Shown: positions 17,234 to 43,552 of the stretch, piece after piece | Position numbering within the stretch: the stretch's first letter is position 1 | Layout of the letters: every line of letters starts with the position of its first letter | Source of the DNA: Nitrospirota bacterium | Lineage (GTDB): Bacteria; Nitrospinota; Nitrospinia; SZUA-224 | Direction: 5' to 3' | Length of the DNA: 54,490 nucleotides | Assembly: GCA_003229375.1 (NCBI GenBank) | Contig: QIDP01000088.1 | Coordinates: 1 to 54,490 of the forward strand | Notes under the pieces: model-generated | The model's input: only the letters and a program-made list of their open reading frames with translations | What the model was told of the DNA's origin: nothing | Databases searched by the model: none | Program-made: the position numbers and the translations under genes

Positions 17234-20200
17234 CTATCTCTCCCTCCATGAGATTACCTTATTCAATTTGAATGGCGGATCTGTCTGCAGCTTTTCAGAG
17301 CCCCCCCCGGTGGTCTGGGTATAGGGCATTATCTTACCATCCTCTAAAACAAGAAGGCTTATGTCAGAGGGAATACCAATCTGTTCAAGAGGTTTTCTCT
17401 TCCTTACTTTTTTTGTCCCGCTATTTTCAAAGACAGCTTCCTTATATGCCGTGCCGGTCTCATAATACAGGGCATACATGGCCCCCTCTCCTGAACAGGC
17501 TATGCCCTGGGCGCAGATATCAGTATACGGGGCAAATGTGGTAAAGAGGACCAGCCCGCCGAATACCACCGGCTTATTTAACGATCTCTCTGCAGAAAAA
17601 TTGCCATCTACCAGCGTTGCTGAACCCGGTTTCCGTAAATCTATGTACCATCCTTGTTTAGATGCTACAAATTCAATGAGTCCGCTAAAATTATTCACGT
17701 CTGATACATTTTTCACTGTTCCATCTTCGTATACATCCGCCCCTGTTGCATTAAAAAGATTACTTACAGAATTTTTACAGTCTGTAAATACGCCATTATT
17801 CCAACACGGCTCCTTTATACCATAGAAACTCTGTATACTTTTATCTCTCCTGTCATCGCTATTAAAGAACCTGCCGGTACCGAAATATATCCATAGGTTA
17901 TTATGGCTATCCATAGCCACATCCGGCGCAGAGGTTATTGCCTGCTGCTGACTATCACCTGTTTCAAACAGGGTTGATATACTCCACCCGGCAGGATCGG
18001 CATTATCCTTCATCAACACCCTGAGCATCTTGCTTCTCCACTTCTCATTTTCTCTGTAGGTCATACCTATGTAGCACACCTCTGTACCATACCCGCTATC
18101 AACCTTGAGATCAATATCAATACAAACAGGATCTGCCATAAAGGCGTTGTCACTCAGATTAAACCTCTTTTTCATTTCACCTGTCTTTAGATCCAGAACA
18201 AATATGCCGGCATTCTGATCACTGGTACCATCATAATCTGCAGGGCCTGATCCTGCAATCACAAACCACTTATTATCCACCTTTGCCACTTCGGGGTATG
18301 AGGTGGTAAAACCAAGTTCAGGATGTGTAAATTCCCATAATAGTTTTGGAGGATTGGCAGGATTTGTTATGTCGAGCGCAAAATAGGCCGAACTGAAGGT
18401 CTTAGGGGCTCCACTGCCATTAAAATCATCGATTTTCACTCCTTTTCCGCCAAACCTCATTCCGCCGATAAGGACTGTACCCCATCCATTTGGGTGGTCA
18501 TCACCGGCCGTGAATATACTTGCATCTATTACCCGGGGTTTCAGGTCCACATAATAGACATGGGTATAATTCGGGTCGCTCAGCCACTTGAGATGGGGAA
18601 GCAGGTTATAAGGTATATAGGCCCATAACTCCTCACCTATCTTATTACCTTCATACCATCCATACTCCCTTGTACTCTCTGTGCCCGGATCATCACCTTC
18701 ATGGAAAACCCCTGCTCTAAAAGCATGGAGCATCCCATCATTTGCGCCAACATAGACCACTGTTTCCCTCTCATGGTACTGTTTAAGAAACTTATAATAA
18801 CCTGTATCTCCATATCTATAGATATATCTTGCCATTGGCCTCCTCACAACCGCGGGTGTTGAATATATAATATCACCGAGCCGCCACACTGTCCCGGCAT
18901 CATCTATGGTCCTGTCCCTTAAACCGGTTACATCCTCTCCCCTTATGAAGTTTATTATATTCTTTGCTTCTGCATCGTCTGCTGCCCTGAGATATGGTTT
19001 AAGGGTTGAGGCATTGCCCTCTTTAAATTCTGTAAAGCCTGTAGTGCCTTCTATATAGGTATGTATATTCCTGGGATCGGCAGATATATCCCTATCCGCA
19101 AGCATCTTCCCTGCCTCCCAGATGGGACTAATATCATCCAGGGAAACTATCGTAGGTGAATCATTTGCAGGGTTGCCATCATTATCAACATCAACACCGT
19201 ATCTCTTAATCTCGGTTTCTTTAGCATCTTTATTGAATGAGAATTCTATTATCTTATCATTTGCCAGGTCCAGCCTTTTATCACCATTGTCTTCTCTTAG
19301 ATTACCGTATGGATCCACCCATAACGCCTGAAGATAGCCGAGCCAGTTTACCTCTTTTTCATCGATTATCTTTGAGGGCCGAAAATATGCATGGAATGCT
19401 GTCCCGCCACCACCTGAGTTTCCGACCACAACTAATGAGGTGCCGGACGCTGTCTTGATCTGTCTCCGGGTATCATTTATGGCACGTAGTAAGGCCTTTT
19501 CTAATTCCTCCCCGTCATTTGCCTCAAGATATACCCCGCCCCCATTCTCTGCTGCATCCTTAAGGAGTTGTACGGCCCTTTGTTCATCATCCTGCTCCTG
19601 GGAGAAGTTAAGAAATATGGGGAAAAGGATTATGTTCTGGTCTCCCCTGAAATCATCTTCCTTTCTTAAATCATTTGTATGTGCCCAGAGGGCTATATCA
19701 TCGAGCCAGTCAGATCCCTGTCTCTCCTGAATATTACCCGGATAGTCATCATCACTTCCAGGGTCATTCCCATCAATATCATTATCCTTAAAACCCGCTT
19801 CCCTGTCATCAGTAGATTGTCCGTCAGTGATAAATACAATAAAAGAATTACAGCAGGGGACATACTCGATTTCATCATTGTAATAATAAGGATCCCACGA
19901 CTTATTGACTTCAAAATCATCAGGATAATAAACCGGTTTTTCCTGTCGAAAATATCTGACCCCTTCGCGGAATGCCTCTGCCAATGGCGACCATGCCCAA
20001 CCGCTTGGCTCCCCGGGCTTTTGACGCTTCCTTTTCCCCCCCCTCCTATTACTTACCTGCCTCCTTTCTCCTCTGGAATTCCCTTCATAATCCCTGACCA
20101 CACTCTTACCAAACTCTATCCAGGTAACTATATCATCTATATGTGTCGTCTTATTCCCTGACCCATCCGTATATGTCTCATCCCCGAAATCCACCGGCAC

Positions 20201-21118
20201 TACGATCTTGCCGCCATCTGATACTGTGCATCTCCATGTATCTGCCCACTCTCCTTTTTCTGATCTATGCTCAATACCCCTACCGCTATTCGTGCATTCA
20301 TCTCCTGTCTTCCCGTGCCTGTCATGATTCTTACAAGCATGCGCCTCATCACTACAAACTGTCTCAACAGCCTGAACATTAAAAAGCTCGAGACCGAACC
20401 GCACCTTATCACCCATCCTCTGAATAATGCCCAGGGGATTGCCCTGATCATCGTAATCAGTTTTGGGGTCATTTGCTGCTGTAACCTCTATTTTATAAAT
20501 ATCTCCTTTTGTAAAGACCTCTTCTTTATTAATCACATCTGTCTTATTAACCACATACAGGCTGCCATCCTTTACCCCGAACCAAAGATCCAGGGTCTTA
20601 GCCTGATTCTCATAAGATTTTATGAATGCTGCGCCCGGATAATCCGGAGTATCCTTTTCTCCTATCAATATCCTCTGCCCCTCGCCGGAGCGTGTGTTTA
20701 CCTTACCACCTACAAGTACTTTCCTTGCTATATCTATACGCCTCATAGCAATCCAGTTCAGGAGATTTCCCTGCATCCAACCCTCTGTTGTTGTGCTGCC
20801 ATTATTATCCTTTGTAAAGAGGTTAAGGGTAGTGTCATAAAAGTATTTGCCTGCCGGATCCGGATCAAAGTAACCGGAGTAAGGCTCATCTTCCTTAAAT
20901 TTCTCCTGATCACCGCGTATAGGAGCATCGGGATCAGATTCATAATAATTGCCATATGCGGGCAAGAGCATACTCTTTGAGTTATCAAGGATTAGCAGGA
21001 CACTCGGCGTGGATTGACACAGGAAGGGGGGATAAGCAGTATGATCGGGCATGGTCTGAGCCAGGGTGTCAGATGGCAGAATAAGCATAAAGGCTAAAGC
21101 AGTTAAGATATGTTTCAT
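17234..21118 (-). CDS. pilY1: PilY1-like tip adhesin with N-terminal vWA domain (cassette C)
   Basis: Signal peptide; MIDAS LILDNSKSM ... FITDGQST; PilY1 propeller blocks VYVGANDGMLHAF, WAYIPYNLLPHLKWL, GWGTVLIGGMRFGG, SAYFALDIT. Confidence 0.9.
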   Translation of the reverse strand: MKHILTALAFMLILPSDTLAQTMPDHTAYPPFLCQSTPSVLLILDNSKSMLLPAYGNYYESDPDAPIRGDQEKFKEDEPYSGYFDPDPAGKYFYDTTLNLFTKDNNGSTTTEGWMQGNLLNWIAMRRIDIARKVLVGGKVNTRSGEGQRILIGEKDTPDYPGAAFIKSYENQAKTLDLWFGVKDGSLYVVNKTDVINKEEVFTKGDIYKIEVTAANDPKTDYDDQGNPLGIIQRMGDKVRFGLELFNVQAVETVCSDEAHACKNHDRHGKTGDECTNSGRGIEHRSEKGEWADTWRCTVSDGGKIVVPVDFGDETYTDGSGNKTTHIDDIVTWIEFGKSVVRDYEGNSRGERRQVSNRRGGKRKRQKPGEPSGWAWSPLAEAFREGVRYFRQEKPVYYPDDFEVNKSWDPYYYNDEIEYVPCCNSFIVFITDGQSTDDREAGFKDNDIDGNDPGSDDDYPGNIQERQGSDWLDDIALWAHTNDLRKEDDFRGDQNIILFPIFLNFSQEQDDEQRAVQLLKDAAENGGGVYLEANDGEELEKALLRAINDTRRQIKTASGTSLVVVGNSGGGGTAFHAYFRPSKIIDEKEVNWLGYLQALWVDPYGNLREDNGDKRLDLANDKIIEFSFNKDAKETEIKRYGVDVDNDGNPANDSPTIVSLDDISPIWEAGKMLADRDISADPRNIHTYIEGTTGFTEFKEGNASTLKPYLRAADDAEAKNIINFIRGEDVTGLRDRTIDDAGTVWRLGDIIYSTPAVVRRPMARYIYRYGDTGYYKFLKQYHERETVVYVGANDGMLHAFRAGVFHEGDDPGTESTREYGWYEGNKIGEELWAYIPYNLLPHLKWLSDPNYTHVYYVDLKPRVIDASIFTAGDDHPNGWGTVLIGGMRFGGKGVKIDDFNGSGAPKTFSSAYFALDITNPANPPKLLWEFTHPELGFTTSYPEVAKVDNKWFVIAGSGPADYDGTSDQNAGIFVLDLKTGEMKKRFNLSDNAFMADPVCIDIDLKVDSGYGTEVCYIGMTYRENEKWRSKMLRVLMKDNADPAGWSISTLFETGDSQQQAITSAPDVAMDSHNNLWIYFGTGRFFNSDDRRDKSIQSFYGIKEPCWNNGVFTDCKNSVSNLFNATGADVYEDGTVKNVSDVNNFSGLIEFVASKQGWYIDLRKPGSATLVDGNFSAERSLNKPVVFGGLVLFTTFAPYTDICAQGIACSGEGAMYALYYETGTAYKEAVFENSGTKKVRKRKPLEQIGIPSDISLLVLEDGKIMPYTQTTGGGSEKLQTDPPFKLNKVISWRER

Positions 21119-43039: not shown

Positions 43040-43066
43040 AGAGGAAATTTAAAAGTAAAATTATTC

Positions 43067-43552
43067 TTAGGTGGGGCAATCAGAGATTCTTACTCTAGCT
43101 GTAGTTATAATAGTTATCCTCTTACATCTATCTCCATCTTGGGTTTCTAGTTCGACTGAGCCATTACTGGCTGTTCCTCTCGGCTGGAAGATTAAACCTG
43201 GTAGTATGCCAAACGTAGACATAGTAAGGTTTATACCTGGATAATAATCAGGAATAATAACTTGTTTTATCGGATTAGGAGGAGGAGGATTACATGTAAC
43301 AAGATTATTATATATAGAGTAAGTATCGTTACCTATATCAAAGCAGATAACATACCTGTTATTATCCGCCACTGCCTTCATCCTTGCCCAGTGCATATCA
43401 GCAGCCAGGTTTCTTATGGCGCCGTTTACCCTCTTAGCCGGAAGCCATTCTACAATATTGGGTATGGCAATGGTAGTCATGACACCAATGATAGCCAGAA
43501 GTATCATTGTCTCTGCCAAAGAAAAACCGCTCTTTTCCCTGATTATCTTCAT
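43067..43552 (-). CDS. fimT: FimT/GspH-like minor pilin (cassette A)
   Basis: MKIIREKSGFSLAETMILLAIIGVMTTIAIPNIVEWLPAKRVNGAIRNLAADMHWARMKAV; ATG at 43552 behind AGAGGTGA. Confidence 0.8.
   Translation of the reverse strand: MKIIREKSGFSLAETMILLAIIGVMTTIAIPNIVEWLPAKRVNGAIRNLAADMHWARMKAVADNNRYVICFDIGNDTYSIYNNLVTCNPPPPNPIKQVIIPDYYPGINLTMSTFGILPGLIFQPRGTASNGSVELETQDGDRCKRITIITTARVRISDCPT

Follow-up and report, generated by a model that had tools for sequence, protein, structure and literature searches.

Three paralogous minor-pilin/PilY1 sets in tandem in an uncultured Nitrospinota-labelled bacterium, probable alternative tip complexes of a type IV pilus

In Myxococcus xanthus three gene clusters, each encoding four minor pilins and a PilY1 protein, serve one pilus machine with one major pilin, and either cluster 1 or cluster 3 is sufficient for piliation (PMC7541494). 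The NtrC-like protein HsfA regulates pilY1.1 and pilY1.3 in opposite directions, and the authors speak of accessorizing tips with different modules (PMC9109919), and a 2026 survey that counted about two PilY1 proteins per myxobacterial genome proposed that the tips are exchangeable (PMC13190605). Multiple sets have been stated for several other bacteria as well (PMC8833165). A related arrangement is described here in a stretch of 54,490 nt from an uncultured bacterium labelled Nitrospinota (assembly GCA_003229375.1, contig QIDP01000088.1, positions 1–54,490; hereafter the window), in which a minus-strand run of 26 kb (17234–43564) holds three paralogous minor-pilin/PilY1 sets with four full-length PilY1 proteins, as seen from the map of open reading frames (ORFs) and family searches. 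An earlier note on this DNA, made from the sequence alone, had pointed to the three cassettes, to four PilY1 adhesins with a von Willebrand factor A (vWA) domain and to the lack of a major pilin, all of which was borne out. Its remark that most studied systems have one such operon overlooks the three M. xanthus clusters (PMC7541494, PMC9109919, PMC13190605) and the other multiple sets (PMC8833165).

The likeness to M. xanthus extends to several features. Three FimU/PilV/PilW/PilX plus PilY1 sets are presumed to belong to one type IVa pilus (T4aP) machine, of which a single gene set is seen in the window. The M. xanthus PilY1 proteins share a conserved C-terminal propeller and have variable N-terminal parts, with an N-terminal vWA (vWFA) domain in PilY1.3; the pilY1 genes are regulated differentially by the NtrC-like HsfA, and exchangeable tips are the published model.

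All genes listed in the earlier note proved to be intact minus-strand ORFs where it had placed them. Unit A runs from pilV_A to pilY1_A, unit B from fimT_B to a DUF4124/FxLYD gene and unit C from pilV_C to pilY1_C, in the order given below. A related metagenome-assembled genome (MAG), GCA_048054665.1, labelled Nitrospinota bacterium, served for comparison; its short contigs carry parts of all three units (L027 for A, MFV1950844/5 for B and L028 for C), with copies 87–96% identical in DNA.

43067–43564, minus: fimT_A, fimT/fimU-like (GspH-family) minor pilin (Pfam GspH E 9e-10 plus N_methyl; class III motif GFSLAE)
42286–42921, plus: pyrE, orotate phosphoribosyltransferase (NCBIfam TIGR00336, 122.1 bits against a cutoff of 106.8)
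41093–41677, minus: pilV_A, GspI-like (Pfam N_methyl; TIGR02523 PilV 1.5e-9)
40254–40982, minus: pilW_A, GspJ-like (N_methyl; 51–53% identity to pilW_B and pilW_C)
39505–40125, minus: pilX_A, GspK-like (PilX_N E 1.5e-11)
39081–39422, minus: orf113, small secreted-looking protein, set A only (92% identity to its L027 counterpart)
35368–39045, minus: pilY1_A (PF05567; the ORF opens at 39102, likely start ATG 39045)
34259–34846, minus: fimT_B, fimT/fimU-like (GspH-family) minor pilin (Pfam GspH plus N_methyl)
33630–34223, minus: pilV_B (N_methyl; 61% identity to pilV_A)
32910–33545, minus: pilW_B (N_methyl)
32203–32784, minus: pilX_B (PilX_N; a copy at least 90% identical in the related MAG)
28508–32167, minus: pilY1_Ba, proximal PilY1 (PF05567, ORF to 32173; 72% identity to Bb; a copy at least 90% identical in the related MAG)
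24543–28343, minus: pilY1_Bb, distal PilY1 (PF05567, ORF to 28355)
23691–24389, minus: DUF4124/FxLYD-domain gene, last of unit B (Pfam DUF4124; NF038353)
22729–23193, minus: pilV_C (N_methyl at residues 32–54)
21980–22732, minus: pilW_C (N_methyl)
21118–21672, minus: pilX_C (PilX_N E 1.3e-12)
17234–21118, minus: pilY1_C (PF05567 E 1.4e-26)

The trio of GspI-, GspJ- and GspK-like pilins is found in 3/3 sets, and set B is the only one that is both complete and contiguous, with all four minor-pilin types in one unit. The GspH-like gene of set A is detached: the gap of about 1.4 kb between fimT_A and pilV_A contains the opposite-strand housekeeping gene pyrE, at which the GC skew changes sign, and because of this intervening gene fimT_A is not contiguous with unit A. 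The two fimT products share 38% identity. No GspH-like gene was seen in set C, either in the ORF map or in a scan for class III motifs. Three paralogous and intact sets are thus present, but the three complete complexes of the earlier note are reduced to one, that of set B. The pyrE frame was at first taken for a ComF-like gene from a Pfam phosphoribosyltransferase match, an assignment rejected on the NCBIfam result, and orf113 had no Pfam or NCBIfam match.

Pfam assigned PilX_N to the three pilX products, N_methyl to the three pilW and three pilV products, and GspH together with N_methyl to both fimT products. The class III prepilin signal (G-1, F+1, E+5) is carried by FimT, PilV and PilW, and a PilX_N-type N-terminus by PilX (motif scan and Pfam); in pilV_A the likely start is a GTG at 41677, giving the leader MNNKRG/FTLLE. 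A six-frame scan of the window for the class III signal matched eight minor pilins only, and hence no major pilin is present there. The duplicates of the minor pilins are old, with identities of 38–62% and synonymous divergences (dS) of 1–1.9.

The family T4P_PilY1 (PF05567) was recognised in all four PilY1 copies (E 1e-17 to 1e-26, 62–94 bits against a cutoff of 28), and a profile of 50 homologues matched the C-terminal domain of Pseudomonas aeruginosa PilY1 (3HX6) at E 1e-46. The proteins are full-length, start with a signal-like segment each and show pairwise identities of 51–72% over the full length. The motifs DNS(G/K)SM, TPL/SPL and ITDG(E/Q)ST appear in 4/4 copies and are invariant or nearly so across the 50 homologues, and the DxSxS...T...D residues predicted to form the metal ion-dependent adhesion site (MIDAS) are present in every copy, in agreement with the claim that all copies keep this motif and the propeller.

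The vWA fold was modelled for PilY1_A and deduced from the alignment for Ba, Bb and C. The AlphaFold2 model of PilY1_A residues 55–475 (vWA region 37678–38940) reached a predicted local distance difference test score (pLDDT) of 91 and a predicted template modelling score (pTM) of 0.92. The top 50 or so Foldseek matches of this model in the PDB were vWA domains, with probabilities of 0.8–1.0 for almost all and target template modelling (TM) scores up to 0.60; the best of them was the pilus vWA pilin PilB of Streptococcus sanguinis (7ba2, E 2.5e-4, probability 0.99), and CMG2, factor B, SpaC, Mfa5 and integrin I domains were among the others. Judging from the order of secondary structures in the models, the first strand of the fold is followed by a beta-rich insertion some 150 residues long. 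At the sequence level, Pfam VWA at E<=10 gave a sub-threshold match for Ba only (E 0.015), phmmer with PilY1_A against the PDB gave no match, and hhalign of the family profile with an approximate integrin I-domain sequence aligned the DxSxS strand alone. The model of the N-terminal half of PilY1_C (pLDDT 75) had low-confidence or disordered inserts and weak Foldseek matches. The vWA question was settled by the insert-free PilY1_A fragment, since this gave a confident model together with vWA matches.

The paralogs diverge chiefly in the N-terminal vWA half, in its loops and inserts. PilY1_C carries a Cys/His-rich insert (residues 248–298, nt 20225–20377) and a basic insert (residues 336–374, nt 19997–20113), and PilY1_Bb a Met/Gly-rich insert (residues ~194–243, nt 27627–27776). 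The C-terminal tails differ among the copies, being Gly-rich in both B copies. These features had been listed in the earlier note and could all be placed in the alignment. The Met/Gly-rich and Cys/His-rich inserts are metal-binding-looking. In known systems the N-terminal vWA half is the adhesive end of PilY1.

Comparison with the related MAG gave ratios of nonsynonymous to synonymous divergence (dN/dS) of 0.23 for pilX_A, 0.23 for orf113 and 0.20 for pilY1_A (against L027), and of 0.29 for pilX_C and 0.25 for pilY1_C (against L028), values that indicate purifying selection on these five genes. The two inserts specific to PilY1_C are almost unchanged in L028. Among the four PilY1 paralogs dN/dS ranges from 0.14 to 0.52 in every region. 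Pseudogenised cassettes would have spoken against the earlier interpretation; by the dN/dS and intactness tests none of the copies is a pseudogene.

When 20 outside homologues were included in neighbour-joining trees, the four PilY1 proteins grouped with the MAG orthologue in a single clade (bootstraps of 200/200 in the N-terminal and 180/200 in the C-terminal half), as the phylogeny and pairwise alignment suggested in the earlier note now show. Outside relatives with readable context (L003, L024 and L025) have one fimT-pilV-pilW-pilX-pilY1 set each. Given a single clade here and single sets in the relatives, the array is a lineage-specific expansion of a complete ancestral unit; units A and C would later have lost the GspH-like gene from the operon.

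A mosaic structure of the PilY1 genes became apparent from the synonymous divergences. Between A and the B copies dS is about 0.5 in the N-terminal half, as low as between Ba and Bb, and 1.6 in the propeller, while between C and the B copies it is 2–3 in the N-terminal half and 0.9–1.0 in the propeller. As a recombination test, which the earlier note had proposed in general terms, a maximum chi-square analysis placed a breakpoint at alignment columns 686–723, the vWA/propeller junction (P<=0.001, 1000 permutations), also with third codon positions alone. From the dS contrast and this breakpoint it follows that PilY1 paralogs have swapped halves where the two domains meet. With a dS of about 0.5, the swapped segments are not recent. 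At the protein level the topology switch of the propeller half divides the bootstraps 128 to 71 of 200, and because of this split the recombination claim is based on dS and maximum chi-square.

Paralogy extends to the sequences that precede pilV_A, fimT_B and pilV_C. They contain candidate sigma-54-type -24/-12 sites, which align with one another and adjoin an AT-rich block. The elements located by pattern scan, alignment and hairpin scan are as follows.

41879–41905, minus: conserved AT-rich block upstream of set A, paralogous to 35056–35082
41793–41808, minus: sigma-54-type candidate of set A, TGGTACATATAATGCA (TGGTAC-N5-ATGCA)
35056–35082, minus: conserved AT-rich block upstream of set B, paralogous to 41879–41905
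34948–34963, minus: sigma-54-type candidate of set B, TGGCATACATATTGCT (TGGCAT-N5-TTGCT), 1 mismatch
23672–23694, minus: intrinsic-terminator-like hairpin, 10-bp stem and T-run directly after the DUF4124 stop
23292–23307, minus: sigma-54-type candidate of set C, GGGCACATATTTTGCG (GGGCAC-N5-TTGCG)

Each candidate precedes the first gene of its unit by about 100 nt, on the correct strand and with GG and GC intact. Matches strict for GG and GC number 11 in 109 kb of strand (both strands), so that their occurrence at 3/3 units would have a chance probability of about 1.5e-5 if independent. The 27-nt AT-rich pattern has 2 matches at <=1 mismatch against 0 expected, and a scan for sigma-70 promoters stayed at chance level. 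The terminator-like hairpin, a strong one, marks the boundary between units B and C. We read this layout as three sigma-54-type units on which an NtrC-type activator probably acts; a gene for such a protein lies in the window next to pilB. The features flanking the array that bear on this point and on the pilus machine are listed here.

52061–54274, minus: pilB-type ATPase (Pfam)
50358–51923, minus: HAMP sensor kinase (Pfam)
48760–50139, minus: NtrC-type sigma-54 activator (Pfam)
9486–14512, minus: pilM-pilN-pilO-pilP-pilQ, T4aP machine genes (Pfam PilM_2, PilN, PilO, PilP and Secretin), in a pilMNOPQ-aroB block (8408–14512)

The PilMNOPQ machine is presumably the one served by the tip sets. 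The PilB-type ATPase has a MshEN domain at its N-terminus and a cyclic-nucleotide-binding domain at its C-terminus, and a relative at least 90% identical to it is annotated simply as PilB. A separate protein with cyclic nucleotide monophosphate (cNMP)-binding and MshEN domains (1660–3465, minus) and a class I adenylate cyclase (5685–7700, plus) are also encoded, which hints at a direct control of the pilus motor by cyclic AMP (cAMP).

Unit C differs from the others at its 5' end, where the start of pilV_C coincides with a truncated repeat resembling a miniature inverted-repeat transposable element (MITE).

23114–23240, minus: truncated MITE-like repeat at the pilV_C start (95 nt at 96% and 30 nt at 100% match to 15188–15315)

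An alignment of the four copies of this element, with its terminal inverted repeats, showed that pilV_C takes its ATG, 27 codons of its leader and its Shine-Dalgarno sequence from the truncated repeat. The resulting leader of 33 residues before G/FTLLE is unusually long, and no nearer canonical start (ATG, GTG or TTG) exists. A suspected likeness of the leader to the N-terminus of a four-helix-bundle protein of 23S rRNA intervening sequences found no Pfam match and was dropped, the repeat origin being kept. Further along, pilV and pilW overlap, as do pilX and pilY1, and the gap of 307 nt between pilW_C and pilX_C holds a repetitive extragenic palindrome (REP); the description of cassette C as compact, with overlapping genes, applies to the two overlaps and fails at this gap.

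The REP, GGGTGGCATGGACAAACTTGTTTGTCCGTG, occurs in 11–13 copies against 0 expected, with 13 REP cores in the window. The main form is seen in three gaps of unit B, two of unit A and the pilW_C/pilX_C gap, and downstream of pilY1_C; the remaining gaps hold different palindromes. The contrast between units A and B, with REPs in nearly every gap, and a clean unit C is therefore only partly right, because REPs also occur in the unit C region. Within the array they are often located in 5' untranslated regions (UTRs) just before start codons, such as that of pilV_A (41690–41718). Between promoter-like site and start codon, units A and B have a REP and unit C the MITE-like remnant. A canonical RAYT gene has flanking inverted REPs at 43686–43714 (plus) and 44314–44352 (minus).

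43664–44296, minus: RAYT, REP-associated tyrosine transposase (NF047646, 106.5 bits against a cutoff of 80)

Copies of the MITE-like element are located at 15179–15366, 16965–17098 and 50163–50324, besides the truncated one. The element is bounded by inverted repeats at its termini (GTAACTACTCAGGT...ACCTGAGTAGTTAC) and brings a Shine-Dalgarno sequence and an ATG of its own. Of its copies, 3/4 immediately precede a gene that runs in the same direction (an Lcl_C gene, the NtrC-type regulator gene and pilV_C). A second palindrome family (GCAGGCT...AGCCTGC) is present at 16330, 16367, 35304, 35328 and 48304.

Some short repeats were noticed within the genes of the array. The only two G/C homopolymers of 8 in the window (20036–20043 and 17301–17308) are both in pilY1_C, with G8 on the coding strand, where about 0.3 G/C 8-mers would be expected by chance on a rough estimate. 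The tract in the basic insert (20036–20043) is absent from L028, and for this reason a role of G8 in phase variation is doubtful. Near the 5' end of the DUF4124/FxLYD coding sequence, after the start codon and before the signal-peptide core, there is a perfect (AATTTCG) x 4.7 heptamer repeat (24324–24356), in which a change of one unit would shift the reading frame; 2.3 units of the same repeat are found at 39048–39063, just upstream of the likely start of pilY1_A. The 3' flanks of pilY1_Bb (24390–24542) and pilY1_Ba (28344–28507), about 150 nt each, are near-identical, so that the duplicated unit comprised pilY1 with its 3' flank, and a related piece of 62 nt is found downstream of the PilY1 gene in a Nitrospirae-labelled MAG contig (L002). 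PilV_A (41093–41677) and PilV_B (33630–34223) have an acidic insert some 70 residues long that contains DxDxDG-type repeats (e.g. DNDNDNDGISDFFDIDDDGDG). The repeats look calcium-binding and are not seen in PilV_C, and the insert had no family match.

Taken together, the array probably encodes alternative priming and tip complexes that arose by lineage-specific tandem duplication, with differences in specificity in the vWA loops and control through sigma-54-type promoters. In this scenario an ancestral fimT-pilV-pilW-pilX-pilY1 unit with a sigma-54-type promoter would have been copied to give three units, pilY1 would have been duplicated once more within unit B, and all copies would have remained functional. 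A sigma-54-type promoter of its own would drive each unit, with an NtrC-type activator like the one encoded beside pilB probably taking part, and the alternative PilVWX-PilY1 complex of the unit would prime assembly in the single PilMNOPQ/PilB machine and end up at the pilus tip. There the vWA half of PilY1 may contact surfaces through its MIDAS site and copy-specific loops, with the propeller half docked on the minor pilins, and recombination between paralogs at the vWA/propeller junction may have reshuffled adhesive against docking halves. Alternative tip complexes are a reasonable reading because it is chiefly the loops and inserts of the vWA half, the adhesive end in known systems, that vary among the paralogs. 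The interchangeable tips proposed in the earlier note are hence plausible for intact, constrained sets of this kind; they are not new, being the model already published for M. xanthus.

Several observations weigh against alternative tip complexes of this kind. Units A and C have no GspH-like pilin in the operon; an M. xanthus cluster requires all four of its minor pilins (PMC7541494). For its start codon pilV_C relies on a repeat element, the leader of its product is unusually long, and the processing of this prepilin is uncertain. Genes for pilA, pilC, pilD and pilT are absent from the window, the part of the genome that was seen. The three promoter-like sites are paralogous, so that their co-occurrence does not amount to three independent events, and the sigma-54 pattern is not enriched across the window (25 found, 20 expected). 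The common paralogous layout of these sites fits common as well as differential control.

An unlikely alternative is that the copies are redundant, without specialisation and with unit C perhaps decaying, and persist through dosage, robustness or recent duplication. The shared architecture of all four PilY1 proteins, the similar paralogous promoters, the REPs and MITE-like elements that litter the region, and a unit C without fimT and with a chimeric pilV_C 5' end are what such a locus would show; against this, the copies are old yet intact (dS of 0.4 to >2 between PilY1 paralogs and 1–1.9 between minor pilins), the tested genes of units A and C are under purifying selection in two assemblies, the PilY1_C-specific inserts are nearly unchanged in the related MAG, and the differences are concentrated in the vWA-half loops. 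The mosaic PilY1 genes admit an adhesin shuffling as well, in which recombination at a fixed hinge would time and again re-pair vWA heads with propeller bodies matched to different PilVWX sets, and the separate sigma-54 promoters, possibly together with slippage-prone tracts (G8, heptamer), would choose the displayed tip. This is quite unlikely; were it true, the pilus tip would be programmable for different mineral or cell surfaces.

That the extra sets act mainly as surface sensors or regulators, signalling into the nearby cAMP components after the model of the vWA-dependent mechanosensing and the FimS-AlgR feedback of P. aeruginosa PilY1, is very unlikely. The class I adenylate cyclase, the cNMP-binding/MshEN protein and the cNMP-binding domain of PilB are encoded in the window, and regulatory roles of the P. 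aeruginosa minor pilins and PilY1 have been published (PMC5979040), but a direct connection of the sets to the cAMP genes was not found, the multiplication of whole PilVWX sets alongside PilY1 would be left unexplained, and sensing can coexist with adhesion. A reservoir for gene conversion, in which one expressed copy is rewritten from the others as in the pilE/pilS system of Neisseria to vary antigen or adhesin, is highly improbable. The clear mosaicism with its breakpoint at the domain junction, the two G8 tracts of pilY1_C and the perfect heptamer repeat of the DUF4124 gene would suit it. Promoterless, truncated donor copies of the Neisseria type were not found, however: the ORFs are complete in all copies, each with a signal peptide and a promoter-like site of its own, no copy is silent or truncated and the tested ones are constrained. 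The exchanged segments, with a dS of about 0.5, speak for old rather than ongoing events, and the G8 tract of the basic insert is not conserved in L028.

Alternative tip complexes thus being the probable reading, the locus can be set against the systems it resembles. Its module belongs to the T4aP minor-pilin/PilY1 priming and tip family. It differs from M. xanthus in that its sets stand head-to-tail in one 26-kb array, the M. xanthus clusters being dispersed, and in that they are within-lineage duplicates of one vWA-plus-propeller architecture, whereas the M. xanthus proteins differ in their N-terminal domains and PilY1.3 is probably a horizontal acquisition. One set here has two PilY1 genes, two sets lack the GspH-like pilin from the unit, and PilY1 is mosaic across the domain junction. 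With the fimT and fimU-pilVWXY1Y2E genes of P. aeruginosa it shares the homologous propeller (3HX6), the N-terminal vWA domain and the GspH/I/J/K-like order, and the separately transcribed fimT upstream in P. aeruginosa is comparable to fimT_A. P. aeruginosa has a single set, controlled by FimS-AlgR (PMC5979040) and not by a sigma-54-type promoter, and no equivalents of its pilE and pilY2 were found here.

In Neisseria and Kingella more than one PilY1-family tip protein, PilC1 and PilC2, is present per cell, with adhesive roles that partly overlap and partly differ. In these organisms the PilC gene alone is duplicated and not the whole minor-pilin set, and it undergoes phase variation through a poly-G tract. 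The PilC proteins differ from the PilY1 copies described here in having no recognisable vWA domain, and the PilY1-family proteins of N. gonorrhoeae have been reported without recognisable N-terminal domains (PMC7541494). The pilus-borne vWA/MIDAS adhesion module of S. sanguinis PilB (7ba2) is grafted on a pilin and not on a PilY1 propeller, and with a sequence identity of 10% the resemblance is one of fold only. Tandem pilV/W/X-pilY1 sets on one strand were also seen in the Gammaproteobacteria MAG OZ241890.1 (three sets; L021, 1–19649) and in a Thiotrichales MAG (two sets; L016, 1–20067). These are distant, their PilY1 proteins being 24–27% identical to the copies of the window, and the arrays arose independently; no published description of them was found. 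Particular to the present locus are the head-to-tail paralogs of the same architecture, the doubled pilY1, the exchange at the domain junction and the common sigma-54-type layout, which is variation in detail and not in kind.

The remaining neighbours of the array were also inspected. In Geobacter and Myxococcus pilA is kept downstream of the NtrC-type regulator gene. In the corresponding gap of the window (47582–48759) the six-frame motif scan detected no pilin gene, and REPs and a small plus-strand ORF (48412–48666) are present. Between the RAYT and regulator genes a predicted secreted protein of 982 residues (44633–47581, minus) contains a HEYGH (HExxH) motif and had no Pfam or NCBIfam match. 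Just downstream of pilY1_C two adjacent genes (15447–16307 and 16427–16906, plus) encode Lcl_C-domain proteins, one of them with a Big_2 domain, and are flanked by REPs and MITE-like copies.

The locus leaves current understanding unchanged; the arrangement is already described in M. xanthus. Multiple sets are thought to let one machine display different tips, a notion for which the experiments rest almost entirely on M. xanthus, and the array adds a compact natural example from a different, uncultured lineage. Because its sets are true recent-to-old paralogs of one architecture, the differences between tips can be mapped to a few vWA loops and to the breakpoint at the junction, and the locus offers a convenient template for domain-swap work on tip specificity and on the matching of PilY1 with its minor pilins.

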